Virus record (IMG/VR): IMGVR_UViG_3300008117_004020
Coordinates: 32,001-96,000 of that record
Length of the DNA: 64,000 nucleotides
Reading direction: 5' to 3' (one strand)
Source: a virus
Part shown: piece after piece, positions 29,101-64,000 of the stretch
Numbering within the stretch: position 1 is the first letter of the stretch
How the letters are laid out: each line of letters starts with the position of its first letter
The notes under the pieces: generated by a model
Told to the model about the DNA's origin: nothing
Database searches by the model: none
Seen by the model: the letters and a program-made list of their open reading frames with translations, nothing else
Program-made: the position numbers and the translations under genes

Positions 29101-32100
29101 AGAAATCACCTGGCGGGTATTATTAGCCAGCCATCTTTTGTACATCTCACTGTCCTCACCATATGTTAGTTTCATCTTTGTCTTAGCTCTCTCAAACGCT
29201 GCTCTAAGTTCTACATCTTCATAGATGAGATTCTTGTTTTTCTGATACTCTCTCAAAGCCTGAGCTATCTTTAAGTCATCTCCTGTCTTATCTGTACCAT
29301 CTAGATTTTTTATTTCCATAAGAGAATAGTATTTCTCCCATAGCTCTTGTCTGGTTTTAAGATGATCTTCGCTAAGTTTACCCTCAGCAATAGCCTCATT
29401 ATCATACATCATCTCTATACCTCTGATTTCCTCAAATATCTTGCTGGTAATTTCTCTTATACTAGTCTTTTTATTACCATACATCACTTCTGTATCCAAC
29501 ATTTTAGTAAGATCAAAGTAAGCTTTTGTATAGTCTGACTCAAAATATTTACGCTCAAAGTCTTTAATTTCTTTTTTTACTCTTTTAACTTCATCTTCAG
29601 ACACCTCATCAGCCTCAAATTTCTTGTTTGTTAAATATAATTTACGCTTGAGTTTATCATACTCATAGTATAAACTTTCATCAAACTCAGATTTAAACAC
29701 CAGACCAAAACTCTCATCACCTGATGCTATATCCAGTCTTTTAGCCTCATAGACCAATGACTGATTGATTTCCTTAATATTAAGACCTCTACCATAAACT
29801 TTAGCACGTTTATTAAATTCAGGTGACAGTTTATCTCTAAAGTCTTTCATCTTTAATCTCACACCATCTAATACACGTTTTAATCTCTTAGCAACAGATG
29901 CTATAACAACATCTGGATTAGATATTGTAGGCAACCATTTGCTCAGAAACGCACCTGCATCACCCATGCCACCTGTCATAGTAGCTTTAATAACATCATA
30001 ACTTGCTAGCTGATCTCTCTCCTTTGTAAGTTCTGCCACTCTTTTTTTATCTTTTCTTTGCTCAGCAGCCTTAATAAGCTCATTGTATTCTCTCTTCATA
30101 TTATCTAATAAGTCTTTTGTAAACTCTTCAGATAATGTAGAAGCAACGTGTGGGGTGATAGCTTTAATATAACTAGTTCTTATGTTCTCAATAGCACCCA
30201 TCATTTGTGTAAGCCTGTCAACAAGAATATTATCTTCAGCTACAGTGGTACCTAAAGCATCCAACATTTCTTTAAATACATTCTCATAGCCTATTACAAA
30301 GTCCTTGATCTTTTCTAGCTCCTTAATCTTTTGAATAGCAGCCTGTTGTGTTGCAGGGGTTAACGCTTTGAGTCTATCAAACTCTTTAGATATAATATTA
30401 ATAATAGGCCCAGCAGAATCAACCAGCTCAATAAAAGCTTTTTGTATAGCCACCATATTACGCAAATCCCCATCTTCACCATAGTTTTCTAAGAATGTCT
30501 TAACAAGGCGTTCCATTTGTTCCACCTTGTTGACTTTATCCTCATCAGTTAATAAATCATATACATTCCTAACATCCTTGTTTTTCTTAAAATAAGCATA
30601 GATTTGATCCAACCTACCCTTCATTTTAGCAAACGCCTCTTTCATCCTAGGTTTACTAATATTCTCTAAAAGTTTAACCCTAGCATCTTCTTCTTTGGAT
30701 GTCTCCTCTTTTCTGTTAGCATCCATACTCATATCAAGATCTGGGAAATATCCATTTGCCAGCCTATCATTAAATGGTGTTGGAGCTGTCTGAAAAACAC
30801 CAATCTTATTAATCTTATTGGTTGCAGGGTCAATCTTATATCCTACACCAATAATAGTAGTGTCGCCCACCTTTACACCTTGAGACATCAATATCTTCTT
30901 ATAAATTGACATCTGCTGACTATATTTTTCCCTAAGTCTTCTTCTATTACCCACTAACTCAGGAAGAACACCTTCAGATTTTCTTACACCACCTGTTGAT
31001 AACAAATCAATTACATAGTTAAATTCATCCTCTAGATTAGTAAACTTTTTAAACTCAGGTCTATCTTTTAAAAATTTAGTTTTAAAGTCTAATATGTGTG
31101 CTACACCATTCTTGTCAATAGCAATAACGTCAGCCACACCACCCACTTCTAAATTACCTATCTCAGTCTCAGTCATTAAAATATGACCCTCATCAATAAG
31201 TTTCCTAATAATCCCTCTAATTCCAGGTTCTCTTAATGTACCATTGATAACTTTGTCTAGCGTAGACTTATCCATGAAAGTATAAATAATAGGGTCAAGA
31301 TTGTCTAAATCAATCTCTCTATCCATTATAATATTCTCCACTATACTATGTATAGCTGTACCAAAAAGAGTCTTCTTTTGATTTTCAGATGCAGAATATA
31401 ACAACTCTGTTATCCTATCTCCTAATACTGTCTGAATATCTTCTTTCTCATATTCACCCTTAATGATTTTATCAATCAAATGCGCTGCAATCTTTTTAGC
31501 AATCACTTCATCTGAGTCTCCAATATCATACACATCAGAAAACTCAATATCATAATTGCTCACCAATTGCAGTACAACATCTGGACTTTCAAGTTCACTA
31601 TAAAAGTCAGAGCCAAGCAGTCTACTAGGAGATTTAAGTCTTATTGGTTCACCTGTGATAGGATCTAATACAGTGAGACTATTGTTATCTTCACGCTTGA
31701 TTAAAGCTGATATAGCAATAATCTTATTTAACGTATCTTTTTGTGAATCATTCATAGACTGAGCCTCATAGAATGACTTAGCCTCATCTGTAAGTTGGTT
31801 ATAAACCTCACTAGATGTAAGGTTCATGTTAAGATTACTGATGTCCTCTGCCATAAACATCTCTTCTAAAATATCAATAGGGTCTCTTTTTAACTTAAGA
31901 GCTTTCACCCATGTCATGATTCTTTGTAAAAGAGCTCCCAGCCAAGATTCTTTTGCTTTGATGTTACTAGCCAGCTTTTTAGCCAATGCTTCACGCTGTA
32001 TCTTATCAAATCTAATCTTACCATCTGGGGTTCTATAGTTGGGATTGTCTTTATACTCTGCTAGTGTATCTTTATACACCTGAGTGTTCCTGATTTTATC

Positions 32101-51548: not shown

Positions 51549-54500
51549 TTACCAACCTCCCACTCTATATTCTGGGATGTAACCACCTTGTTTTGATTGT
51601 CTTGGGTTGTTTGCATCAGCCATATTCATCATCATCATAGCTGCCATAGGATTCTTATTAAACATTATTTGCTGTAAATATAGCTTATCAAATGGATTAT
51701 TAGGATCCAATTTATTCTGAGTGATAAAGTTTCTATATTGAGCATATCCATCACCACCAAGTCCAGTACCAAAACCAAATGGGTTAGTATCAGCTACTGA
51801 ATACCCACTTCCTGGTTTAAAGTACATATTATAACTTAATGGGTCAAAAGCTGCCTGAGGATACATTTGATTCATTAAATACTGCTTGTTAGCATTAGCC
51901 ACCGTATTTATAAAAGCTGCTTTTTTTTGTGCAAACTTGTCCATATTAGATCTATCAACATTACTTATAAAAACAGCATTTTTATCAGCTAGCTGAGTAT
52001 TAGCAAGGGCTTCTTCTCTAGCAGCTTGATTGTAGATTTGATTATTCATTTGCTCATTAGCTGTAGCAAACTGAATGTTTTGTAATCCTGTATCTAATGT
52101 ATTCTTTTGAATCTCAGGAAGTAAACTAGCGTTCACTTGCATTTGTCTAGCAGCTCTAGTTTGAGGAGCTCCACCATACAAATCATTACCTGCCATTGCC
52201 ATAGCACCTTGAGACTGTAAAAGTCTATTATATGCATCTGTACTAATCTGCTTTGCATCAGTATACCTAGGTTGCCATTTAGCTTGATATGGAGGAACAT
52301 TTCTATAAGGATCATATTGAGCAGCAGCAAATCCTAATATATCTTCTTCAAATGGACGCTTTTGCAAAACCTGTGAATATGTACTATATACTCTTTTTTT
52401 GTCCTCCTCTTTCTTTTTTAAATCATAAGAAGAAGTTTTATCACCCTTATCTTTTTCTCCACTAGTACTTTCTGAAGTGCTCTCATCAGGAGTATCAAAT
52501 GTAGCATATAAATCAGGTGTTCCTTCTTTTCCTTTTGTACCTTCTAATGGTTGATAATACGTTTCCCAAAATCTTTTTACATCTTCTCTAGGAAGTACTA
52601 TTCTTCCTACACCAGGTTTATATGCTGTAATTTCTTCCCATGTTGCGCCTTTTTCTGCAAGAGCCTTAACCATTGGTCTCCAATCTCCTTTTCTGGAACT
52701 TCTTCTAGGAGTTACACCTAATGAACCTGGTTGTCCAGATATACCTTCTTGACCTTGTTGCCAATATAAATTAGGATAGTTATTAGGATCATAAGGAATA
52801 TATCCCTGTGGAATTTGAGTTTTATCTTTTACTTTGGTAGCTCTAATCTTCCTTCCATTGATATCAACATCCACTTCACCATCAGTTTGGAACTTATGTA
52901 GTCCACCATGCATCATCATTTCAGGAGATTCTTCTTCTTGTTCTTGTGGTTGCTGTGGAGCTGTCATTCCCAAAGCCTCACTCAATTCTTCCATATTTTT
53001 AGGAGGATTGGTTTGTATCACCTGAGCCAACAAGTCTCCCATACCCTGCATGCGCATAAGCTTCATCATAGCAGGCATAGCTAATGATGGAATATCATAC
53101 TCCTTACCCATCATACCCTTGGTCAATTCACCCCCTAATACAGCCTTAGACATATAATCCTGATAGACGCCAAACTTGTTCATAGCTGTAGATAGTTCAA
53201 ACTGGTCTGTAATACCACCACCTTGAGCAGTTTTAATAATTTCCGCCAGTCTATTGTAGTCTTTAGCATTCACCTTAGATCCTAACAGCTTAGCCCATGT
53301 ATTGTCTTTCTTTTTGTTAGACTCTACATCAAAACCCATCACTTCTTTTAAAAATGATGGAGCTGTGATATAATCACTCACTACATAAGACCCTGGTTCT
53401 ACATTAACAGGAACACCCCCTTGACTATGTTTTTTACCATTAACATCATAGACGCTCATGCCATCCTTAGCTATAATCATCTCACCTCCCTCCACTTCAA
53501 TGTTAGGATTGTCTTTTTCACTAGCTTTAGGATAGACAGATCTAATCTCTGAGTCAACAGGCGCTTCTTCAAAAGATTTAAAATCTCTTACACCTTGTCC
53601 TCTATAAAGACCATAGCCCATTTGATCACCCACTGTTCTACCTCCTTCAGCATATTGACGCTTATCAGAAGTACCTGTAATTCTTATTTTCATACTATTA
53701 GGATTATCTTGTAACATATTATCTTCTGGTATTTCTCCACCTTCTTCAAAATACCCTTGTTGTTTTAATTGATTATAGATCTTTCTATCCTCCCACTTAA
53801 CAAACTCTTCAAATACCTTTTTCTTTTGTTTTTCATTTAGTTGATTTAGCTTAATATCTGTACCTACCTCTTTCACTATATATGGGGTGGAACTAGTTTG
53901 TTGTTTGGGATTACCAGTGACCCATTTGTTTCTAGCTTCTGAAATAGAAAGATTATTATAAGCACTTCCAAATATCAAATCACGCATAGCCTTTAAGCCT
54001 GTTTCCATATCAGGGAATATTGCCACATGACCATTACCATCCTTTCTACCCTTTATTCCACCATACACCTTTGCAAAATCACCCTCTATATGTATATTAC
54101 CAGGATTATTATGATCCCAGTTAGATATATTAGTTTTATTACTCTTTTCTCCACTTACACCTTTAACATTAAACAAATGAGAAGGATCTACAAATTTACC
54201 TGTTGCATCTCTAAAAGTAAAATGTAAATGTGGACCAGTTGATATGCCACTATTGCCAGATAACGCCACCTGTTGACCTCTAGTCACCTTATCTCCAATA
54301 GTCACTGTATAATCATTTAGATGCGCAAACCCAGACTTTGAACCATCGTTATGCCTGATAATCAATTGTTTACCACCTTTATCATTACTATAAATATTCT
54401 CAACCACCCCATCCATAGGAGAATAAACAATACTATTTACTGGAGCAGCTAAATCAATTCCATTGTGACTAGATGAAGCTCCTTTTTTTGGTGACTTACG

Positions 54501-55478
54501 TGGACCAAATCCACTTGTAATTTTAAAGTCTTTTAGAGGCATTGCTATTTCTGAACTTGCACTAGCTGTAGATGAGGCCTCAGAGTCTATAGATGTAACA
54601 TCAGATTTATCAACTGGTTTAGTAGCAGCATCTTTAGATGAAGCATCTTGTGCTGGTGTTGGTGCTGTTGCACCACCCACTGGACCAGCATTTCCACCTG
54701 GATAATATCCTTGACTCATGTAACGCTCATAGTTCATATTACCTCCACTACCAGGCATATAGTCAGGATAGGGTGCTCCTTTCACTGTAGGAGGTATGTC
54801 AAATGGCACTAATGCTCCACGCTGTGCCATAAATCTATTACGAGAGTTATACAAAGACTCTGAGTAGTATGCAGGATATCCCATGTATTCTCTTACAGGT
54901 CTACCAGCAAATGGTGTAGGAGTGGTAATCATACCAGGTGTACCTACATTCATAAGCAAGTTGCCTCTCTCACCACCAGGAGCTGTTACAAAGTTTGCAG
55001 ACTGCCCTAGTTCCTTAGCATACTGGGTGTTGGTATTATAGTTATCTATACCCTGCATTAAATCTGAAAACATAGACATACCAGCATTAATCATTGATGG
55101 TAGAATATAATTAGACTGTCTAAATGTCTTTTTATTTTGTGCAGCAGTTTGATTTATAGCTCCAGGACCCCCTACTTTTTGACCCATAGGATTAGTTGTT
55201 CCAGTAATAGGTTGTCCTTTAGATCCTACACCTTGACCCATCCAAATTCTATTAGCTTCTAATTGTTCAGGATATATCCAATTCCCAGTCTCATCTTGAA
55301 CCATTCCAGCTGTTGGTGATGCAGAAGGCATCATATTACTAGGACGAGAAGGTATATTATCAATGTCTGGTATACAGTTACCAAATCCATCATCCATATA
55401 TCCTTGAGGGCAATCATTAAATAACCCTCTCATTTGAAACTTTGGTAGTCTTTTTTGACCTGTAATTTTAATACGCAT
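51549..55478 (-). CDS. Multidomain virion protein with M23 peptidase and lysozyme-like domain
   Basis: HNGIDLA...HLHF (M23); NNPGNI...FPDMETG; EVEGGE...GKKHSQGGV. Confidence 0.8.
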   Translation of the reverse strand: MRIKITGQKRLPKFQMRGLFNDCPQGYMDDGFGNCIPDIDNIPSRPSNMMPSASPTAGMVQDETGNWIYPEQLEANRIWMGQGVGSKGQPITGTTNPMGQKVGGPGAINQTAAQNKKTFRQSNYILPSMINAGMSMFSDLMQGIDNYNTNTQYAKELGQSANFVTAPGGERGNLLMNVGTPGMITTPTPFAGRPVREYMGYPAYYSESLYNSRNRFMAQRGALVPFDIPPTVKGAPYPDYMPGSGGNMNYERYMSQGYYPGGNAGPVGGATAPTPAQDASSKDAATKPVDKSDVTSIDSEASSTASASSEIAMPLKDFKITSGFGPRKSPKKGASSSHNGIDLAAPVNSIVYSPMDGVVENIYSNDKGGKQLIIRHNDGSKSGFAHLNDYTVTIGDKVTRGQQVALSGNSGISTGPHLHFTFRDATGKFVDPSHLFNVKGVSGEKSNKTNISNWDHNNPGNIHIEGDFAKVYGGIKGRKDGNGHVAIFPDMETGLKAMRDLIFGSAYNNLSISEARNKWVTGNPKQQTSSTPYIVKEVGTDIKLNQLNEKQKKKVFEEFVKWEDRKIYNQLKQQGYFEEGGEIPEDNMLQDNPNSMKIRITGTSDKRQYAEGGRTVGDQMGYGLYRGQGVRDFKSFEEAPVDSEIRSVYPKASEKDNPNIEVEGGEMIIAKDGMSVYDVNGKKHSQGGVPVNVEPGSYVVSDYITAPSFLKEVMGFDVESNKKKDNTWAKLLGSKVNAKDYNRLAEIIKTAQGGGITDQFELSTAMNKFGVYQDYMSKAVLGGELTKGMMGKEYDIPSLAMPAMMKLMRMQGMGDLLAQVIQTNPPKNMEELSEALGMTAPQQPQEQEEESPEMMMHGGLHKFQTDGEVDVDINGRKIRATKVKDKTQIPQGYIPYDPNNYPNLYWQQGQEGISGQPGSLGVTPRRSSRKGDWRPMVKALAEKGATWEEITAYKPGVGRIVLPREDVKRFWETYYQPLEGTKGKEGTPDLYATFDTPDESTSESTSGEKDKGDKTSSYDLKKKEEDKKRVYSTYSQVLQKRPFEEDILGFAAAQYDPYRNVPPYQAKWQPRYTDAKQISTDAYNRLLQSQGAMAMAGNDLYGGAPQTRAARQMQVNASLLPEIQKNTLDTGLQNIQFATANEQMNNQIYNQAAREEALANTQLADKNAVFISNVDRSNMDKFAQKKAAFINTVANANKQYLMNQMYPQAAFDPLSYNMYFKPGSGYSVADTNPFGFGTGLGGDGYAQYRNFITQNKLDPNNPFDKLYLQQIMFNKNPMAAMMMMNMADANNPRQSKQGGYIPEYRVGGW

Positions 55479-55489
55479 ACTATTTAAAA

Positions 55490-56065
55490 TTAATCAATTA
55501 TCTCAAATTTATAGCCTTCTGCTGTAAGTTTTTTTAGCATTTCTTCATTTACATCATTTAATACAGTACCTACAGTGAGACCACCCTCTTGCATATATTG
55601 CTTCATAGGGTTATTATCTGCATACAAAGATGGTGCTATTGTATACATATATGGTGAATTTGCATACGCTGGGATATTAACCTCTCCTTCATATTGATAA
55701 GAAGACATACCACCATCTCCAAACATAATATTCTGTGGAAAGTATCCTCCAAAGTTATACATAGCATTCCCTTCTTTCATATAGTTAGGAATATCACCAC
55801 CATGCCTATACCACATATTACCTGAGTTAGTTGATCCACCACCTCTGTATTGAGCACCTGTTTGTTGTTCTTGAATCATTGCTTGAACAGCCTGCCTAAT
55901 TTGCATTATAGCTTTTTGCTGATCTTTAGGATTCATCTCCTGAATTTGCTTAATAAGCTTTTCAGGTGTTGTATTAGAAGCTTTTGCATATAATGCGATC
56001 TCTTGCATTAATGTATCATCTGTCATGTCCCCATCTTGATTTTGAGGATAGTAGGATTTGTTCAT
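55490..56065 (-). CDS. Small protein composed largely of xxxGG motif repeats
   Basis: YRGGG, YRHGG, YNFGG, FGDGG, YQYEG, MQEGG. Confidence 0.7.
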   Translation of the reverse strand: MNKSYYPQNQDGDMTDDTLMQEIALYAKASNTTPEKLIKQIQEMNPKDQQKAIMQIRQAVQAMIQEQQTGAQYRGGGSTNSGNMWYRHGGDIPNYMKEGNAMYNFGGYFPQNIMFGDGGMSSYQYEGEVNIPAYANSPYMYTIAPSLYADNNPMKQYMQEGGLTVGTVLNDVNEEMLKKLTAEGYKFEIID

Positions 56066-56070
56066 TTGAT

Positions 56071-59000
56071 TTATTTTTTAATTTTCATGTTATAATAGTC
56101 CTTCAACAATCCACCCTCTTTCATAGATTTTTTAGATGGTTTGGAAACATAACCTCCATAATTATACTGTAGATTAGTATAATTAAGCATTTCACCAAGT
56201 GTTGGTTGGTATTCTTGAGGATTTTTTTGTTTAAACTCAACTCTTTTATCTTGATGAACATATGGGTTAAACTTATCTTTCTTTGCATAGTCAATACCAT
56301 ATTTAATGTCTTTAGTCACTCTTGGTCCTGTAGTTCTACTTAATTTATTATCAAGAGATATATATTTAGGATCTTTAATTATTTTACTTTCTGCAATTCT
56401 TTTTAAAGAATCTAATTTCTCAAATATATTCCATCTTTGTTGTGCAGCTTGTTCTGTATAATAACCTCCTTCACCTCTTGCTTTATCAAATAATTCACTA
56501 AGCTCTTTATTAAGTTTTTTTACTTCTGGTTTACTATTATAATAAATATCCATTTTATTATCATAATAGTTCTCACGCTCTCTATAATATTTTTCAGTGT
56601 CAGGGTGATAGTAAGTTCTACTAAACATAGCATCTAATACCCCTACCCTGCTGTCTCCATATGCAGGAGCATTAGGATTAATACCTAACCATGGACGATC
56701 AGGTCTATAATAGAAATTGCTCACTCTTGAAAAACTTGGGGGATTAGGATAGAAATTCTTAGGATCATTTACACCAACAAGATCATTAGTGGAACAACTT
56801 CCTAAATAACAATTAAAATCACCAGCTCTTCTTTGAGCTTGTTCTAATGCATCTCCCCATAAGTCATTAGGAATACCTGCATATCTTGAACCATGATGAC
56901 CTAATATATAAACTCTGTCATCTTTTGTAATCTTACCTAATGTAGGAACCACTTGTTTGTCAAAGTATTCTTTACCATATCCTGGCATAATAACTACTTC
57001 TTCATTGGGATAGTTTTTACCAATATATGTTTGTAAGTTTTTTGCTTCTTGTATAAAAGCAGAGGTTGTACGAGGACCAGGAAGACCTGCATTAGGGTCT
57101 TCAGGAAACACATAATGTTTTACTGTGCCTTTCTTTTGATACTTAGGTATTTTAGGAGCGAGTACAGGTATAGATATGTCTCCGCCACCTTGCATTATAT
57201 TACCACCATACTTTCTATCATAATATCCTGTAGTTCCAGTTCCTATACCTATAGGTCTACTCTGAAGCTCTTGCATAAACTGTGAACCTTCTTTCTCAGA
57301 TGGAAAATATTGAGATGCTCTTTTACCAGACTCATCCGTATAGTCTACTCTATAAGGAGTGCTCATATTAACTTTTCCTGATATATCTCCAGCTACCTGT
57401 CTAGTTAATGGAAGTATATTATACTCAGGAGCTTGAGATTCTCTTTCATTTTTAACAGCTCCACGTTTAGGATGTAAAGTAGCTTCTCTATAAATAACAG
57501 GTTGTTTTGGTTTATCGTAAACATATGTTCTTTTATGTCCACCAGTTCCACCACCTAGATCTACCCATTCATTTGAATATTTAACACCTGCAGGATATTG
57601 TTTTTGTTTTATAGCGTATTCCGCATTTTTGAAAAGTTCTTTAAATTTTGGATTTTTTTTAACACTTTCACGATATTTTTTTAAATTTTCTTTTCTTTCT
57701 TGTGCTGATTCTACATGATCATAATGTTCAACAAAACCAACAGCTGGATACCTTTGAAAGTTTACAGCACTATCACCATGAGCTTTCAATCTAGGATCAT
57801 TAGGATCATTTGTATATATAGGAGGAAGAGTCCCACCTTTTTGCATCATAGGATATTCATCTACATAATCTGCACCTGGAAAGTAATAGTCTTGACCAGG
57901 CTGCATAATAATTTTTTGACCTGTATTAGCATGCGCTTCTACAGGATAAGGTACTCCATCCATTGTAATACTAGGCGAAAATACTCTTGTATTTTTACCA
58001 GGATGAGCCCATTGACCTCTATCATCATTTATCACCTTCCCTTGTTTAGCCGTAGTTCCTAAAGATAGTTGATTTGCAGAACCTCCCCATTTTTTAGTTG
58101 GAAAAACTTCTTCAATAGGTTCTTTAACTTTTTCACTAGGTTTACTATCAAATAAATCATCTGCGTTAAAAACACCATTATAGCCTATACTATATTCAGG
58201 ATTTGGATCTGCATTCCATTTGTCTATATACTCTTGACGTTCTTTATTGGTTTTAAGGTTTATATTTTTTTTGCCAGTATCAGTATACATTGTCAATTCA
58301 TAAGGACTTTCTATTTTATCAGTTTTTAAATATTCTAATGGAGTAGTATTAATTTGTCCAAGCGATAAACTAGCAGCTGATTTACTTCCATCTTCTTCAG
58401 AGCTTTGGAAAGCTCTTGATCCACTAAATCTATCCTTAAGTTTTTTCCATGAATCATAATCCTTTACATATACTGTTTGCTGTTTACCTTGGTAATCTAC
58501 ATAATTAATAGCAAAAGAAGGATTGAATTCTACCTTTTGTTTAGCTTCTTGAAACTCAGGAGCATATTGAGTAGAAGCGGTGTCAACAAGATTACCTTTC
58601 TCATCATAATGTTTAGAGTCCACATGATAATCTGTAATAGCTACAGGATTAATTATTTGATTTCCACTTATTACAGAGGCTGACTGATCAACAAATTCAT
58701 CAACTGCTTTTGGATCATTTCCTTCTTTGATTAATTTGTCCTTATATTGTTGAGTAGTATGTCTAACTAAAGGTTGATTTTTATATTTAGTAACGCTTTT
58801 AGCAACTGATTTCTTATCTTTATAAGATTTATCAGATGTTGATAATGTAGGACGAGCATTATTTGCTGTAATTGTTTTTTCATTAAAACTATTAAGATCA
58901 TTTTCTTTTATACTAACTGCAGAGTTAATTGCTGCATTTGTACTATCACTAGCTAATTGATTCCTTCTATTAAAATCATTTATATCTGATGTAATATATG

Positions 59001-62000
59001 GAGCAGGTCTTGGAACACATGTTCTTTTTACTGTATCCCAATACATATTAGCAGGACATGATCCTGGACCACCTATATCAAATCTTGGAATTTCATATTT
59101 AATATCACCACCATTAGCATATCTACCTACATTTTGATAATAATTTTTTTGTAATGAAGGATTAGTAAAAATTCCTCTCTCCATTGATTTAGTAAGAGGA
59201 TTATAACTAAATGATTTTAATCCTTCTATACCAGGTAAATCCATTTCAGTAGTTGGAGTGATAGTTATATTTTTTCTAGGTAATACCCCTTTTTGTAAAA
59301 CATCACCTAATAATTCCCGATGTGTATCTAAAGGTCTACCTAATGAGGATTCAAGAGCTGATTGTTTTGCAAATAAATGTCTCCCAAATGGTTTATCAAA
59401 TATAGATCGTTTAAACATCCCACTATATGGTTGGCTTTTCAACCACCACGTTTTGTCACCTGTTAACTTACCAAGATCATTATGAATAATCCAATCATCA
59501 ATTGGAGTAACTTCTTCATCATATTTAAAATAATCTTTATATGGATCATCAAATTCAATTGGTGCTGCATCTGAAACATTATATTTCTTTTGTAACTTTT
59601 TAATATGTTTACTAGGATATGGATGATCTGGTCTTGGCATAAACATGTATGTTTCATCAGAAAGCCCTATTCCATTCTCAAACTCTGACATATAATACAT
59701 CCTACCATTTCTTTGCAAAAAAGGACCATCAGAATACCACACTGTTTTTCCTTCAGGGAAATTAGGAGTGCCTTTATAAGATACATTAGGCCCAATAAGC
59801 TCTTCTTCAAGAATACGATTAGCATAATATCTATCAGCAAGTTTTGTATTTAACTTACTGTTATTTAGCATTTTAGATACAATGACGCTTCTAGGACTGG
59901 GTATATTAGAAAGAAGACCTGATTCTGTACCTAAAGCTTTACGTGTTGCGTTTGCAATTTTTACTGGAGCATTTGTAACAGATTTAGAGCCAGGTAACAT
60001 TTTAAAACTACCTACACCTGCTACATCACCTAATACTCCTAAAGCTGGAAGTATATTACTAGTAATACCATCACTGTTAAACCCATATGGATTTTGTCCA
60101 ACAGCTAATTGCGTAAGTCTACCTGAAGAAGTTATGGGAGCTGTAATAGGATTCATATTTACAAATACCTCAGATCCAGCAGTAGCAGCATCATAATCTC
60201 TACCAGATGGTGTAGCCATAGCAGCTGTTTGTACTAATGCTGGTGTTTGTACTTTTCCCCATGCACCTCCCTTAGCTGTTGGGTCATTAGCTGGAGCTAT
60301 ATCACCTGTCTCATAATTAAACTTAGCTCCTGTTTCAAATGCACGTTGTTTATTTAATTCATACCTTCTTTTTTTAGATTGAGGTGATTCAGGTGTAGCT
60401 GGACCTACAAATGTTCTTCTAGCATTTTCTCTAGCACCAGCATCCATTTTTCTTTTTGTCTCAGCAGCTATAGCAGCACGTTGCATTACAGCTAAAGCGT
60501 CAGCATCTGTAGAATAGTTAGTAGTCTGTCCTAAATCCATCATCCAAGGATAAACTGTTCCTTTGGTTTGATATTTTTGTAATCCCCCTTCTTTATTAGG
60601 TGTAAGATTTTGCCATGCATCTATACCTCTATAGGTTTCTCCTAAATCTAAATTTTTGGGAACCTTGCCATATAACTTGTTTAAACGCGCTTGAATTTTT
60701 GAAGATGTTTCTGCATCATCCGCCATTTTTAAAAGATCCTCATAATGTTTAATTTGATTAGATACTACTGAATTTAAATCAACATAGTTAGCCAGCTCAT
60801 CTCCAAATACATAAATGTTTTTATTTCCTATGTCAAAGTTGGGATCCATCATGTTAGATGGATTAGCACGCATTACTCCTTTAGCTTGTGACCCAAGAGG
60901 TTTTCTACTCCATAAATACTCAGGTCTAAAATCTTTATGATATGGATTATAAGTATTTGCACCTCTTGTTAATTTTTGAAAAGTCCTTTCTAATGATAAA
61001 TTATGGTCAAAATCAGGATGATTTTTTAAATTATCTAAAGTTCTATTAACAGCATGATTAATAGCATCTTTCCAATCATACCCCATATTAGTAAAATCAC
61101 GAATATGTTTCTTATATTCATCCATGAATATTTGTTCATTAAACAACTGCTCATTAGTTACAAAATCTAATTTTGTTGGAACTTTTTGTTCTCCATATTG
61201 AGCTAAATTAACTAATCTATCACCTGCTGTTGGATTTTGAGAACTATAGTAAGTTCTTCCTTTTTGATTTTTTGCTGCTTCTTCAGCACCTTTTTCCTGT
61301 TGTTTTAAAAACTGCATATACTCTTCTGCTGTAGAAGGTATACCTGCTTTTTTATTAAACCAGCTATCTGTAACTCTTTGATTACGAGCTGCTAATCTAG
61401 AACTAGGAGGAAGCTCTTCTACAAAAACTGTTTCTGGATTATAGGTACTACCTGATGGTGTCCTTGTAGTCATTTTAAGCATACCAAGATCACCAGATAA
61501 TGCTAAAGCCCCTAGTATGTTTTGTCCTATACTATTATCTGCACTAAAATATGGATTGAATGTCTTAGGATCAAACATACTTCTACCAGCCCCATAAAGT
61601 CTGCTTGTTGACATAATAGGTCCAGTGATAAGAGGATTCATATTCACTGTAGTCTCAGCTCCTATTACACCAGCATCTACATTATCTCCTGTAGGCGTAA
61701 ACAATCCCATAGTTTGAGCTAAAGCGCTGTTTCTCTGAGCTTGACTTCTAGCATATTCTTGTGCAGATTGTTTTCTTTGTACATCGTACACTTTATTATA
61801 CTGCCCAATCTGAGGACCTGTTTGTACAGCCCTTTGTTCATTTCTTCTAGCTATAGCTAAAGCATCAGATGGAGAAACTCTATATCCTGTAGGATTAGTA
61901 ATAGGATGATAGGGTTGATCTGGTCCTACAGTGCCATCAGTTTGATATTGATGCAGTCCCCCATATCCTTTCTTATTAAGAAATTTTTTAACATAATTAA

Positions 62001-62580
62001 GCTGGTTCTTTATCTTTTCTTCATATACAGGATCTGATGCATACCTATTACCCGCTGCATTAATAAATCCTTTAGGCTTAAGTAAGTCTTCAAATGACTT
62101 TTCTCCTTTCTGTAAATAATCATTATACATTAAGTTAAGATAGTCACCAACAGATTGTTTTGCAGAAGGGTAGTCTTTAGTTAATCCTTCATCTGTATTA
62201 CCAATATTAAAATAATTATATTTGCTTTTAAGTTTTGTACCTAACCCACTTTCCATTTGACCTTGAGTTAATATCATTTCTAGTGGAGCTTGATAACCAG
62301 TCTTATTATAAAAGTCCATAGCTGCATCTGCTATATCTTTAGCCTTAAGAGATGTGCCTTTAAACACTGGGCGGTTTAAATACTTTTGAGCGCTATTCAG
62401 ATATGTATTATAATCAAAAGCGGGTTTTGTTGAACTTTCATTTCCTCCCATCATTCCCCTCATAAATGACCCAAGTCCAGATGCTATTTTAGACACTAAA
62501 GGATCAAAGATGTAATTTCCAACCTGTGCTTTTGGAAGTTTACCACTATAATAGTTGCTAAGTTTAGATTTTTTTGCCAT
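56071..62580 (-). CDS. Modular virion protein: GH73-like muramidase, repeated modules, C-terminal clan-CD-like protease
   Basis: QGQMESG...NYFNI...YASDPVY; internal duplications; YILGHHG...YLGSC. Confidence 0.7.
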   Translation of the reverse strand: MAKKSKLSNYYSGKLPKAQVGNYIFDPLVSKIASGLGSFMRGMMGGNESSTKPAFDYNTYLNSAQKYLNRPVFKGTSLKAKDIADAAMDFYNKTGYQAPLEMILTQGQMESGLGTKLKSKYNYFNIGNTDEGLTKDYPSAKQSVGDYLNLMYNDYLQKGEKSFEDLLKPKGFINAAGNRYASDPVYEEKIKNQLNYVKKFLNKKGYGGLHQYQTDGTVGPDQPYHPITNPTGYRVSPSDALAIARRNEQRAVQTGPQIGQYNKVYDVQRKQSAQEYARSQAQRNSALAQTMGLFTPTGDNVDAGVIGAETTVNMNPLITGPIMSTSRLYGAGRSMFDPKTFNPYFSADNSIGQNILGALALSGDLGMLKMTTRTPSGSTYNPETVFVEELPPSSRLAARNQRVTDSWFNKKAGIPSTAEEYMQFLKQQEKGAEEAAKNQKGRTYYSSQNPTAGDRLVNLAQYGEQKVPTKLDFVTNEQLFNEQIFMDEYKKHIRDFTNMGYDWKDAINHAVNRTLDNLKNHPDFDHNLSLERTFQKLTRGANTYNPYHKDFRPEYLWSRKPLGSQAKGVMRANPSNMMDPNFDIGNKNIYVFGDELANYVDLNSVVSNQIKHYEDLLKMADDAETSSKIQARLNKLYGKVPKNLDLGETYRGIDAWQNLTPNKEGGLQKYQTKGTVYPWMMDLGQTTNYSTDADALAVMQRAAIAAETKRKMDAGARENARRTFVGPATPESPQSKKRRYELNKQRAFETGAKFNYETGDIAPANDPTAKGGAWGKVQTPALVQTAAMATPSGRDYDAATAGSEVFVNMNPITAPITSSGRLTQLAVGQNPYGFNSDGITSNILPALGVLGDVAGVGSFKMLPGSKSVTNAPVKIANATRKALGTESGLLSNIPSPRSVIVSKMLNNSKLNTKLADRYYANRILEEELIGPNVSYKGTPNFPEGKTVWYSDGPFLQRNGRMYYMSEFENGIGLSDETYMFMPRPDHPYPSKHIKKLQKKYNVSDAAPIEFDDPYKDYFKYDEEVTPIDDWIIHNDLGKLTGDKTWWLKSQPYSGMFKRSIFDKPFGRHLFAKQSALESSLGRPLDTHRELLGDVLQKGVLPRKNITITPTTEMDLPGIEGLKSFSYNPLTKSMERGIFTNPSLQKNYYQNVGRYANGGDIKYEIPRFDIGGPGSCPANMYWDTVKRTCVPRPAPYITSDINDFNRRNQLASDSTNAAINSAVSIKENDLNSFNEKTITANNARPTLSTSDKSYKDKKSVAKSVTKYKNQPLVRHTTQQYKDKLIKEGNDPKAVDEFVDQSASVISGNQIINPVAITDYHVDSKHYDEKGNLVDTASTQYAPEFQEAKQKVEFNPSFAINYVDYQGKQQTVYVKDYDSWKKLKDRFSGSRAFQSSEEDGSKSAASLSLGQINTTPLEYLKTDKIESPYELTMYTDTGKKNINLKTNKERQEYIDKWNADPNPEYSIGYNGVFNADDLFDSKPSEKVKEPIEEVFPTKKWGGSANQLSLGTTAKQGKVINDDRGQWAHPGKNTRVFSPSITMDGVPYPVEAHANTGQKIIMQPGQDYYFPGADYVDEYPMMQKGGTLPPIYTNDPNDPRLKAHGDSAVNFQRYPAVGFVEHYDHVESAQERKENLKKYRESVKKNPKFKELFKNAEYAIKQKQYPAGVKYSNEWVDLGGGTGGHKRTYVYDKPKQPVIYREATLHPKRGAVKNERESQAPEYNILPLTRQVAGDISGKVNMSTPYRVDYTDESGKRASQYFPSEKEGSQFMQELQSRPIGIGTGTTGYYDRKYGGNIMQGGGDISIPVLAPKIPKYQKKGTVKHYVFPEDPNAGLPGPRTTSAFIQEAKNLQTYIGKNYPNEEVVIMPGYGKEYFDKQVVPTLGKITKDDRVYILGHHGSRYAGIPNDLWGDALEQAQRRAGDFNCYLGSCSTNDLVGVNDPKNFYPNPPSFSRVSNFYYRPDRPWLGINPNAPAYGDSRVGVLDAMFSRTYYHPDTEKYYRERENYYDNKMDIYYNSKPEVKKLNKELSELFDKARGEGGYYTEQAAQQRWNIFEKLDSLKRIAESKIIKDPKYISLDNKLSRTTGPRVTKDIKYGIDYAKKDKFNPYVHQDKRVEFKQKNPQEYQPTLGEMLNYTNLQYNYGGYVSKPSKKSMKEGGLLKDYYNMKIKK

Positions 62581-62581
62581 T

Positions 62582-64000
62582 TTATCTAAATGATTTAGTC
62601 ATTTTTTGATTAGACAATCTAAATAACATTTTAACATCATCAGATACCATCCTCTTTAATAATATCTTATTAAGATAGTGTCTGATTTTTTTATGTTGTA
62701 AAGATGTCTTTTGATAATTTACATAGCGATCATTTAATTCTCTCTCATATCCATTAGCTGCTGTTTCCCATATAGGTTGATAGTTAGTTATAAACTCCCC
62801 GCGATTACGCGTGACATCCCAAAACTGATTAAACCTATACTTATTCTCTTCCTTAGAATACAATATATCAATATTACTAGACTTGACAATAGGATATTCT
62901 ATTAGAGCTATAGGATCATTCTTAGGTTTAAGAACTAGTCTTAGATTACCTGATGTTTGTTCTGTATTATGAATAACAGCCCTGTCAAAGTTCCAATCCA
63001 GAATATGATTCTTGTCTTGACATGTACCATCATATTTATAGCATTCCAACTGATACTCTACACTCTTTAATGTTGCCACCTCTTGTCCTGTAGATGATAC
63101 AAACTCCACCTCAAATGGGTAATTTACACCATAGAAATTACAGAATAGGTCACAACGATCATTATGTCTGTAGATGTCTGTTCCTTTAGTTGTCAAGAAA
63201 TGACTTTTAGAAGGAAGGACTAAATCAGGATGCCAGTCATGGAAACTAATCCAAGACTGTGATTTAACATCATAACTCACTGTAAATGAAGCATCTTCAA
63301 AATATAAAGGATCACCTAAATATATAGTTCTTGTTGCTCCTATTTTAAAGATGTTTGCCTTATGGTACACTAATGTGGAAGCATACTCATCTCTCACCTT
63401 ATAGTCCTTCTTACATAAATAAAGAATATTGTTAATATTATCATATGTAAGTTGGACACCCACTCCCAAAATCGGATTATCTGACAACTCAAAATCAGGA
63501 TATGACTTAAGCAAATATGAAGGGAGGTATTTAGCAAACCACCATTTGAGTCCTGCATTAGATATTTCTTGCAATCCTTGTGCAAAATAAAACACCCTTC
63601 CTTGGTTCTGACTCACCCAGAATAAACCCATAGGTGTATTTAATACAGCACCAGAGTTTTGACATGATCCATATTCATAGACATATTCAGCATTACTTGC
63701 TGCTTGCATTGGAGTACCAAAAAGCCCACCATCACCAATAGTCACTTTTACTCCATTAGTAGTCTGAAGTTGATCCACCCCAGCAAAGAAATCAGGACTT
63801 GCATTTTTAAATAATATAATAGATCCAGACTGATTGATTGACTTCATAGAAACAACAGTACTAGAAAAATCATAATAGTTATTAGCTAAAAATACTCTCC
63901 AATTATCTTTTTTAAGTTCTTTTTGTGTAGGCAGTGAATATATAGCTCTTGATGAATAGTAGGAATAACAAGAAGAAGCCACCTCAGGATCATAGTCTTT
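62582..64000 (-). CDS. Tail stabilization-type structural protein (5' end outside window)
   Basis: Frame open to the window edge; beta-propeller-like YGSCQN, FTVSYD..SWISFHDW; genomic position. Confidence 0.65.
   Translation of the reverse strand, partial: KDYDPEVASSCYSYYSSRAIYSLPTQKELKKDNWRVFLANNYYDFSSTVVSMKSINQSGSIILFKNASPDFFAGVDQLQTTNGVKVTIGDGGLFGTPMQAASNAEYVYEYGSCQNSGAVLNTPMGLFWVSQNQGRVFYFAQGLQEISNAGLKWWFAKYLPSYLLKSYPDFELSDNPILGVGVQLTYDNINNILYLCKKDYKVRDEYASTLVYHKANIFKIGATRTIYLGDPLYFEDASFTVSYDVKSQSWISFHDWHPDLVLPSKSHFLTTKGTDIYRHNDRCDLFCNFYGVNYPFEVEFVSSTGQEVATLKSVEYQLECYKYDGTCQDKNHILDWNFDRAVIHNTEQTSGNLRLVLKPKNDPIALIEYPIVKSSNIDILYSKEENKYRFNQFWDVTRNRGEFITNYQPIWETAANGYERELNDRYVNYQKTSLQHKKIRHYLNKILLKRMVSDDVKMLFRLSNQKMTKSFR

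Follow-up and report, generated by a model that had tools for sequence, protein, structure and literature searches.

Why does the same short, glycine-flanked peptide recur in three adjacent proteins of an uncultured crAss-like phage? The question is raised by a stretch of 64,000 nucleotides (the window; positions 32,001 to 96,000 of IMG/VR record IMGVR_UViG_3300008117_004020), part of a contig of 118,147 bp, whose minus strand encodes proteins of 2169, 191 and 1309 amino acids (aa), here called p2169, p191 and p1309. An earlier note on this DNA had described a bipartite motif, built around Gly-Gly (GG), in all three, and had read it as an address or cleavage tag. Our analysis suggests that the peptide is an autonomous docking or address peptide located in flexible seams, a tentative reading to which we give a probability of roughly 0.4.

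A recurring Gly-Gly peptide in three adjacent proteins

The long form of the motif is present in five copies, three in p2169 and one each in p191 and p1309 (Table 1), just where the earlier note had placed them; the twelve shorter forms that it listed are likewise all present. In this phage the core reads L-x-K-[YF]-Q-x-x-G-x-V or LPK[AF]Q..G, and what comes before it is usually Met or an aromatic amino acid, two variable positions and Gly-Gly. The pattern [YF]Q..G.[VI] occurs 5 times in the 3,669 aa of the three proteins, compared to 0.149 on average when the residues were shuffled 2,000 times (no shuffle reached 5, the maximum being 3), and it is absent from the other 39 open reading frames (ORFs) of the window (16,094 aa). 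The same restriction holds for the whole genome, where the motif classes are confined to these three proteins among 125 non-overlapping ORFs. The best pair of 12-mers scores 53, against 35-41 in 5 shuffles. The pattern of the long motif is non-random and real.

For the glycines themselves the picture is graded. Pooled over the three proteins, bare GG is modestly enriched (38 vs 26.1, P 0.007), while GG with Met or an aromatic residue at position -3 ([MYFW]..GG) is found 16 times vs 3.9, a count reached in 0 of 1,000 shuffles, and GG.[ILV]P 4 times vs 0.3. The excess of bare GG is small; the enrichment lies in this context. One could suppose that the whole motif is a compositional artefact of Gly-rich, low-complexity proteins; the three proteins are indeed rich in glycine (7.8-10.2%), and in p2169 and p1309 bare GG is near expectation. 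For the long motif, this explanation is refuted by the shuffles, by the score of the 12-mer pair and by conservation in homologues, and we consider its chance of being right to be close to nil. The motif thus stands above a Gly-rich background, with bare GG doing so only modestly. Its first description was selective in its choice of GG sites, covering the 12 of 38 that fit, and the remaining sites include ones within modules. It also overstated the case of p191, which is not mostly motif; only about half of this protein (aa 71-165) is motif-rich.

At the DNA level, the copies form the strongest repeat family of the region, being 68-81% identical over 31 nucleotides and differing at synonymous positions. 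A DNA-level recombination linker was rejected on these grounds; as the copies differ in their codons, selection acts on the peptide.

Module seams and chain ends

A search of 5.8 billion proteins returned 21 homologues of p2169, every one of them a mosaic. The Glucosaminidase domain, for instance, is N-terminal in homologue P0005 and C-terminal in P0017, and M23, LysM+YkuD and DUF5872 appear in other homologues. For the 123 internal BLAST endpoints of p2169 against 33 related proteins, the median distance to the closest GG, taking all 15 sites into account, is 13 aa, compared to 56.9 aa in a circular-shift null (5,000 shifts, P 0.0014), and 53% of them fall within 15 aa of a GG, vs 18% in the null (P 0.0022); these endpoints are mutually non-independent, many of them stemming from one popular module. 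The corresponding test for p1309, with 12 endpoints, was not significant (P 0.34). The claim that the motifs fall mostly at module boundaries and termini thus stands for p2169, whose breakpoints cluster at GG sites; it is less secure for p1309, and some GG sites lie inside modules.

The internal duplication of p2169 tells a similar story. Two stretches, aa 204-419 and 662-898, are 37% identical and define a module of ~170-210 aa (the R module), and two of the five long motifs form the N-terminal edge of its two copies. Using jackhmmer, we found 19 copies of the R module in 17 proteins. The junctions upstream of them are variants of one theme (GG...GDP, GGDISIP.L, YGPGG + CP.GY...C.P, KYQ.KG.V), and 2 of the 19 copies begin right after the N-terminal leader MRKDS.L..YYYKKLPKA.VG. 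The module itself bears a conserved VNMNP..T.PI and a Gly/Leu-rich hydrophobic stretch. The GGDISIP and KYQ.KG.V sub-elements of the compound junction recur in relatives, and in IMG/VR relatives the ...EYP.M.. end homologous to that of the small module at aa 1512-1583 runs straight into GGWLDKY. The Pfam Glucosaminidase match stops at aa 195, shortly before the first long junction (L1), and the confident model of the module M9 begins directly after the third (L3). An AlphaFold2 (AF2) model of p2169 aa 1-900, made from a 19-row mosaic alignment, is too poor to place domain borders (mean predicted local distance difference test score, pLDDT, 43.6; 613 of 900 residues below 50); L1 and L2 lie in low-confidence stretches, as does most of this chain.

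Some elements travel with the junctions. The two-Cys mini-motif of p2169, CP.GY...C.P, is found directly after junctions also in P0006, P0007, P0011, P0012 and P0023, and again in p1309 aa 23-37 (55368-55412, minus strand); more closely, its form is CP.GY...C[IV]P, and in the five homologues YGPGG.TTDG precedes it. The element could represent a small knot or a metal site. The C-terminal tail of p2169 is shared with P0005 and matches p191 aa 100-111 and 152-163. The tail of p191 (55493-55570, minus strand), with the consensus ...EE.L..L...G[GY].FEIID, is common to a 463-aa protein (L002_463, L002:12029-13417) and a 373-aa protein (L004_373, L004:9093-10211) of IMG/VR relatives, and a second tail type, GG.VEFL, closes the next gene in relatives. 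A single near homologue of p191 was found; a peptide-pattern search of IMG/VR for relatives of p191 and p1309 gave none that could be confirmed, and a PDB sequence search with p191 nothing better than E 1.4. The two halves of DUF5872 lie in different proteins of L002. The first ~45 aa of one L002 cargo protein (L002:12029-12170, plus strand), which make up the N-half of this domain, share 75-89% identity with hypothetical proteins of Synechococcus cyanophages and occur in a Roseobacter phage as well.

One seam of p1309 coincides with a gene boundary in relatives. Its aa 596-1309 align end to end with separate proteins of 643-677 aa in the IMG/VR relatives L001, L002 and L004, and Met596 (53673-53699) retains the context of the true start (55458-55484), with the same six upstream bases and MKIRITG/MRIKITG (DNA repeat D6); a tail and a leader are thus both preserved at this seam. 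Judged from these alignments, the p1309 gene arose recently, by fusion of two genes that relatives keep apart, and internal initiation may occur at Met596. The position homologous to the junction at aa 856-869 holds GG-rich junction variants in the same three relatives.

Beyond this genome, 21 long copies are found in 13 of the 21 homologues of p2169; in relatives the core reads W-L-D-K-Y or LPKAQ.G. In 36 cargo-type proteins, a leader of the LPK type (LP-x-[AYF]-[QKR]) is present within the first 45 aa of 17, and some N-terminal tag in 26; GG lies in the last 25 aa of 21, and 9 end in GGWL[DN]KY plus 0-2 residues. The unit opens three of the 36, and in P0022 and P0025 it is present at either terminus. 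Scanning IMG/VR for the pattern GGWLDKY gave at least 147 copies in at least 143 loci. Among the matches listed, 136 are in open frames; in 62 of these the chain terminates 0-2 residues past the Tyr, and in 74 it reads on, 37 times with xxGG and 12 times with P-x-[AY]-Q. From these contexts it follows that the unit is a core of five to seven residues bracketed by glycines or by the chain end. A related pattern, WL[DNSTE][KQ][YH], occurs 20 times, against 0.06 expected, in 65 library relatives that were picked up with the M9 region (a hidden Markov model scan shows the His/Cys module of M9 in each of them except P0027 and P0028, whose match begins upstream of it). In homologues and M9 relatives alike, the motif is kept while the adjoining modules differ. 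A PDB sequence search with a GGWLDKY region found nothing better than E 1.4, and searches of the literature on crAss cargo proteins, the muzzle and the motif strings returned no description of a junction peptide; the Gly-Gly junction peptide is apparently undescribed.

Taken by their breakpoints and by the chain ends, the glycine-flanked peptides are marks of seams between exchangeable modules and of protein ends. This alone could be explained by a passive hinge and recombination seam, in which the Gly-Gly linkers are simply flexible and the flanking residues are the inherited tails and leaders of once-separate genes, read by no partner. The coincidence of seams with breakpoints and gene boundaries, the vestigial start at the p1309 fusion, the modest enrichment of bare GG and the wide variation of the motif among lineages all fit such a view. 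We nonetheless believe a plain hinge to be insufficient, because the core (WLDKY, LPKAQ.G, L.KYQ..G.V) is conserved beside unrelated modules in many phages and is placed exactly at chain ends, as in the 62 copies mentioned above, a degree of conservation that plain linkers do not have; the core is also kept despite changed codons. The passive hinge is therefore a doubtful explanation, though one that retains an appreciable chance.

Table 1. Features of the motif proteins and of the surrounding genome. Numbers are window positions unless another reference is given.
Feature	Position	Strand	Evidence or remarks
Long motif copy 1, GGLHQYQTDGTV	p2169 aa 207-218, window 61927-61962	-	translation
Long motif copy 2, GGLQKYQTKGTV	p2169 aa 665-676, window 60553-60588	-	translation
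Long motif copy 3, IPKYQKKGTV	p2169 aa 1811-1820, window 57121-57150	-	translation
Long motif copy 4, GGLHKFQTDGEV	p1309 aa 858-869, window 52872-52907	-	translation
Long motif copy 5, GGMSSYQYEGEV	p191 aa 118-129, window 55679-55714	-	translation
p2169, modular cargo-type protein of 2169 aa, directly downstream of the muzzle gene	56071..62580	-	ORF; Pfam Glucosaminidase; 21 mosaic homologues
p2169 N-terminal leader KLPKAQVG, aa 14-21	62518..62541	-	translation; leader type LP-x-[AYF]-[QKR]
Glucosaminidase (cell-wall hydrolase) module, aa 87-195	61996..62322	-	Pfam PF01832, E 1.5e-8, 35.7 bits vs cut-off 30.2
Junction L1 YGGLHQYQTDGTV, aa 206-218	61927..61965	-	long motif; BLAST endpoints aa 199-220
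R module copy 1, aa 219-392	61405..61926	-	internal duplication, 37% identity with copy 2
Junction L2 EGGLQKYQTKGTV, aa 664-676	60553..60591	-	long motif; BLAST endpoints aa 667-701
R module copy 2, aa about 698-890	59911..60489	-	internal duplication; jackhmmer
Double short junction YANGGDIKYEIPRFDIGG, aa 1154-1171	59068..59121	-	BLAST endpoints aa 1138, 1146, 1162
Two-Cys mini-motif CPANMYWDTVKRTCVPR, aa 1175-1191, after the junction	59008..59058	-	translation
Short junction KKWGG, aa 1496-1500	58081..58095	-	BLAST endpoints aa 1495-1512
Most widely shared small module, aa 1512-1583, ending in junction MMQKGG	57832..58047	-	BLAST match in 19/33 related proteins
Compound junction RKYGGNIMQGGGDISIPVLAPKIPKYQKKGTV, aa 1789-1820	57121..57216	-	BLAST endpoints aa 1777-1801
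M9 module, aa 1821-1992	56605..57120	-	predicted caspase/legumain/CHAT-like fold; invariant His1895, Cys1929
p2169 C-terminal tail with YNYGG (aa 2139-2143) and MKEGGLLKDYY (aa 2153-2163)	56092..56166	-	translation
p191	55490..56065	-	helical head aa 1-70; motif-rich middle aa 71-165 (5 GG sites and one long motif); conserved ...GYKFEIID tail
p1309, fusion (by alignment) of two units separate in relatives	51549..55478	-	N-leader RLPKFQMRG (aa 10-18); M23 wall peptidase (aa 337-432)
p1309 fusion seam FEEGG (aa 577-581) ... MKIRITGTSDKRQYAEGG (aa 596-613)	53640..53750	-	vestigial stop/start region
p1309 junction MHGGLHKFQTDGEV, aa 856-869	52872..52913	-	long motif
p1309 C-terminal tail QSKQGGYIPEYRVGGW	51552..51599	-	translation
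Muzzle-like protein, C-terminal 466 aa, no motif	62582..63982	-	Pfam crAss_MUZ E 7.5e-7, 28.1 bits vs cut-off 27; PHROG virion structural protein E 8.6e-28
Big_7 + Peptidase_C1 proteins	L007:12110-13168 and L007:13626-14744 = genome 106110-107168 and 107626-108744	-	Pfam

The Cys/His module M9 and the question of cleavage

The M9 module of p2169 has 66 homologues at E≤1e-3 among 1.84 billion representatives and matches no Pfam, PHROG or NCBIfam family, nor any PDB sequence at better than E 1.4; by these searches, it represents a large unannotated family, which is met in phages both within giant cargo proteins and as small proteins of its own. An alignment of 34 rows shows three invariant residues, His1895, a Gly and Cys1929 (H81, G113 and C115 of the query). 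Peptidases of clan CD have an alpha/beta sandwich in which two consecutive strands end in the catalytic His and Cys, and a hydrophobic block precedes each of these residues. The alignment and the AF2 model of M9 (pLDDT 82.4) have this layout, His and Cys following the consecutive strands 75-79 and 109-113. A structural comparison using VIA-align placed 8tl0_A (SAVED-CHAT; Z 9.3, 148 aligned residues, root-mean-square deviation 4.0) and 5obt_B (legumain; Z 9.3, 142 residues, 3.7) at the top, followed by the metacaspase 6w8r_A (Z 8.9), OaAEP1 (8.4) and MALT1 (8.2), with unrelated alpha/beta folds interleaved among the peptidases at Z 8.6-8.1. Foldseek gave no match at E≤1e-3 and caspase-3 at E 2.8e-3. 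A lead from the ESM Atlas to MEROPS family C80 is weak (rank 17, score 0.86, the family being present on 13% of cluster members); the 50 best VIA-align rows include no C80 structure, and there is no Pfam C80 match. We predict from the model that M9 is probably a clan-CD-like cysteine peptidase.

It is because p2169 carries such a caspase/legumain-like module, with its invariant His and Cys, that cleavage has to be taken into account. According to this explanation, the junctions would form a polyprotein cleavage code, cut in the particle or after injection so that the modules are set free, either by M9, in analogy to autoprocessing multi-effector toxins, or by another phage protease, and the copies at chain ends would be removed as short propeptides, by analogy with the capsid targeting sequence (CTS) of phage T4. 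The distribution of M9 offers some encouragement: in P0001, P0007 and P0012 a long motif immediately precedes the module, and 13 long motifs are found in 5 M9-bearing homologues vs 11 in the other 17. Self-processing has also been proposed for other peptidases embedded in polyvalent proteins, namely zincin-like, assemblin-like, DD and LonC peptidases, in the available text of Iyer, Burroughs, Anand, de Souza and Aravind (2017, PMC5512222).

Several observations speak against it. The M9 profile matches 5 of the proteins P0001-P0025 and finds nothing in the loci L001-L006, although L001 has four long motifs, which weakens M9 as a universal processing enzyme. A core motif lies within 45 aa upstream in only 11 of 70 M9 domains, and many M9 proteins are small and stand alone; M9 is therefore best regarded as one more shuffled cargo or effector module and not as a constant partner of the motif. 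Even the assignment of the fold has to be seen beside the unrelated folds that score among the peptidases, and beside the Foldseek result. Complete copies of the unit are found at the extreme N- and C-termini of proteins, and one fixed scissile bond cannot serve both, which argues for recognition of the peptide itself. As for other proteases, the nearest NCBIfam models of the M23 domain in p1309 are the peptidoglycan DD-endopeptidases ShyA and MepM, so that M23 is a wall enzyme, and as a Gly-Gly protein-cutting enzyme it was rejected as a leading idea. In the available text of Bayfield et al. (2023, PMC10172136), the cargo protein gp45 of phage crAss001 is treated as a single chain that spans tail and capsid, and neither 'cleav' nor 'proteoly' appears. 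A predicted complex of M9 (aa 1815-2014) with the L1 peptide (aa 190-235) scored 0.07 and 0.01, which is evidence neither way. We thus believe cleavage of the junctions to be unlikely, somewhat more so than a passive hinge. Of the earlier reading as an address or cleavage tag, the first half fares better: the peptide is self-contained, lies at seams and chain ends, is conserved at the peptide level and is restricted to three proteins, while the complete copies at both extreme termini argue against a cleavage site.

Two further properties of the M9 family may be mentioned. Three of 36 scanned M9 proteins carry crAss_CARG1, one of them below the cut-off, and P0026 joins M9 to a piece resembling the RNA polymerase domain Rpb2_6.

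A docking peptide for ejected cargo?

The setting of the three genes is that of a crAss-like phage: Crass_capsid is matched elsewhere in the same genome (Pfam, E 1e-29), and the minus-strand order downstream of the muzzle-like gene is p2169, p191, p1309, p1035, p2813, p2391 and p2214. The full muzzle-like ORF of 1622 aa (L007:582-5450, minus strand) has no Pfam match at E≤0.001, although its C-terminal 466 aa pass the crAss_MUZ cut-off. In the text available for crAss001, the muzzle gp44 is followed by gp45 and gp46, cargo proteins C1 and C2, and then by three giant polymerase-associated proteins (PMC10172136). The gene order here matches crAss001 gp44-gp50, with the three motif genes in the late structural block directly behind the muzzle; by analogy, p2169, p191 and p1309 are probably modular cargo or ejection proteins that are injected into the host. 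Outside the window, in the region of the tail genes, lie two neighbouring proteins with a bacterial Ig domain (Big_7) at the N-terminus and a Peptidase_C1 domain of the papain family; these may be proteases that the tail carries and that act on the host surface. The Pfam scan that gave these two proteins covered 16 of the larger ORFs outside the three motif proteins and matched no prohead protease among them.

Within this setting, we suggest that the peptide would serve as a docking handle recognised by one common partner in the particle, for which the portal, a scaffold, the tail lumen or a further cargo protein are candidates. Modules bearing the handle would be co-packaged and kept in sequence until they are ejected; the glycines on either side would act as hinges, so that the chain could be threaded module by module; and with each module carrying its own end tags, genes could fuse and split at the seams while function is kept.

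A number of our results weigh against this docking reading. The presumed RNA-polymerase cargo proteins p2813, p2391 and p2214, as well as p1035, are without the motif, which therefore is not a universal packaging tag. The form of the motif differs strongly by lineage, being L.KYQ..G.V here, of the AYGG type in L002 and L004, and WLDKY elsewhere, so that a single conserved partner would have to co-vary. The virion location of the three proteins is deduced from synteny with crAss001, that is, from gene order only. At the level of sequence, p1309 homology to gp45 was rejected (best BLASTP E 1.3; hhalign of the C-half, probability 0.24%), and the portal-binding domain crAss_CARG1 (PF25725), which finds gp45 itself at E 2.3e-66, has no match in P0001-P0003 at E≤0.01 nor in the p1309 C-half at E≤1. 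On the statistical side, bare GG is near background in each of the large proteins (15 vs 13.3 in p2169 and 18 vs 13.5 in p1309), and the boundary evidence suffers from the shared origin of many p2169 endpoints and from the lack of significance in the p1309 test.

The cargo of crAss001 is among the closest parallels. Like gp45 and gp46, the proteins studied here are encoded directly behind the muzzle gene, and both sets are presumed to be ejected and to form a channel. They share with gp45 a basic N-terminus and aromatic-x-aromatic-GG peptides, which in gp45 (SAYGG, NAFGG and FAYGG) lie beside its two ordered segments. These segments, 214-245 and 425-552 in the solved virion according to the part of PMC10172136 available, have their starts and ends at distances of 5, 18, 2 and 10 aa from sites of the aromatic-GG type (P 0.04 by circular shifts). 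In contrast, the proteins of the window are larger (2169 and 1309 vs 842 aa) and contain wall hydrolases and a Cys/His module, and gp45 has the short form of the motif only, without the L.KYQ..G.V or WLDKY core; the accessible portion of PMC10172136 describes no junction motif in crAss001 cargo. The polyvalent proteins, as presented in the available text of PMC5512222, are likewise giant, multidomain, delivered with the DNA, prone to domain shuffling and equipped with peptidoglycan-attacking and peptidase domains. Here, unrelated domains within a chain and domain shuffling are seen in Glucosaminidase and M9 of p2169, in M23 of p1309 and in the changing domain positions of homologues. Compared with polyvalent proteins as that text describes them, however, the domains here are mostly envelope-directed or unassigned instead of nucleic-acid enzymes; the text has 0 occurrences of 'caspase' and 'linker' and no conserved junction peptide. 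The zincin-like metallopeptidase Pfam family, frequent but not obligatory in polyvalent proteins, was not found in P0001-P0003 or the 21 homologues.

Other systems are related in their logic. The capsid targeting sequence of T4 internal proteins and the inner-body motifs of giant phages are short peptides in which a known prohead protease cleaves a defined bond. Like these, the unit described here is a short peptide, N-terminal or between parts, that is shared by otherwise unrelated packaged or ejected proteins; unlike the T4 CTS, it is also complete at extreme C-termini. MARTX toxins (multifunctional autoprocessing repeats-in-toxin) and large clostridial toxins (MEROPS C80) are autoprocessing multi-effector chains with an internal clan CD cysteine protease domain. 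The resemblance here is that of several linker-separated modules and a Cys/His protease-like module in one chain, with the difference that the link of M9 to C80 is the weak ESM Atlas lead alone. Short linear motifs that dock to a hub, such as the beta-clamp-binding pentapeptide and the C-terminal tail of the single-stranded DNA-binding protein SSB, are similar in logic alone: a peptide of 5-7 residues, in flexible regions or at chain ends of unrelated proteins, sometimes in multiple copies.

The partner could also be sought in the host, with the peptide binding a periplasmic or membrane component of the envelope and thereby allowing the ejected modules to be retained, translocated or inserted, much as colicins carry short binding epitopes in disordered translocation domains. 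The motif proteins do carry periplasm-acting wall hydrolases, the copies are multiple and glycine-flanked, and the motif is absent from the polymerase proteins, which presumably act in the cytoplasm. On the other hand, the motif is kept across phages with probably different hosts, and among the 120 loci listed for GGWLDKY in bacterial genomes, most belong to an unrelated enzyme family, to scattered proteins or to an incorrect frame, with one phage-type locus (L163). The enzyme-like protein in question, from Chitinophagaceae and related Bacteroidota (...FEYAGAAGGWLDKYGYPFAKGR...; L156, L164-L168 and about 40 further loci), holds GGWLDKY within an apparent folded domain, where its presence is probably coincidental. 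A host-directed motif thus seems improbable to us, clearly more so than cleavage.

Returning to docking within the particle, we can speculate about a broader version, in which the peptide would be a general cargo-address code of crAss-like phages. Tagged modules would dock to one hub in the procapsid or tail lumen, enzymes could be loaded and swapped, and the proteins would be strung head to tail for ordered ejection; in lineages with M9, the seams would then be cut after delivery, making these proteins the phage counterpart of autoprocessing multi-effector toxins. We regard this extension as unlikely, of about the same doubtful standing as the passive hinge.

Crass-like phages belong to the viruses of greatest abundance in the gut and in water. 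For annotation, the motif lets giant 'hypothetical' proteins be cut into modules. If the docking reading is true, a short peptide on every envelope-breaching cargo module would be a direct experimental handle, and an address peptide would explain the free fusing, splitting and module swapping of cargo genes. A transferable peptide of this kind would bear on the way in which crAss-like phages select, load and arrange the protein that they inject, several megadaltons in all.

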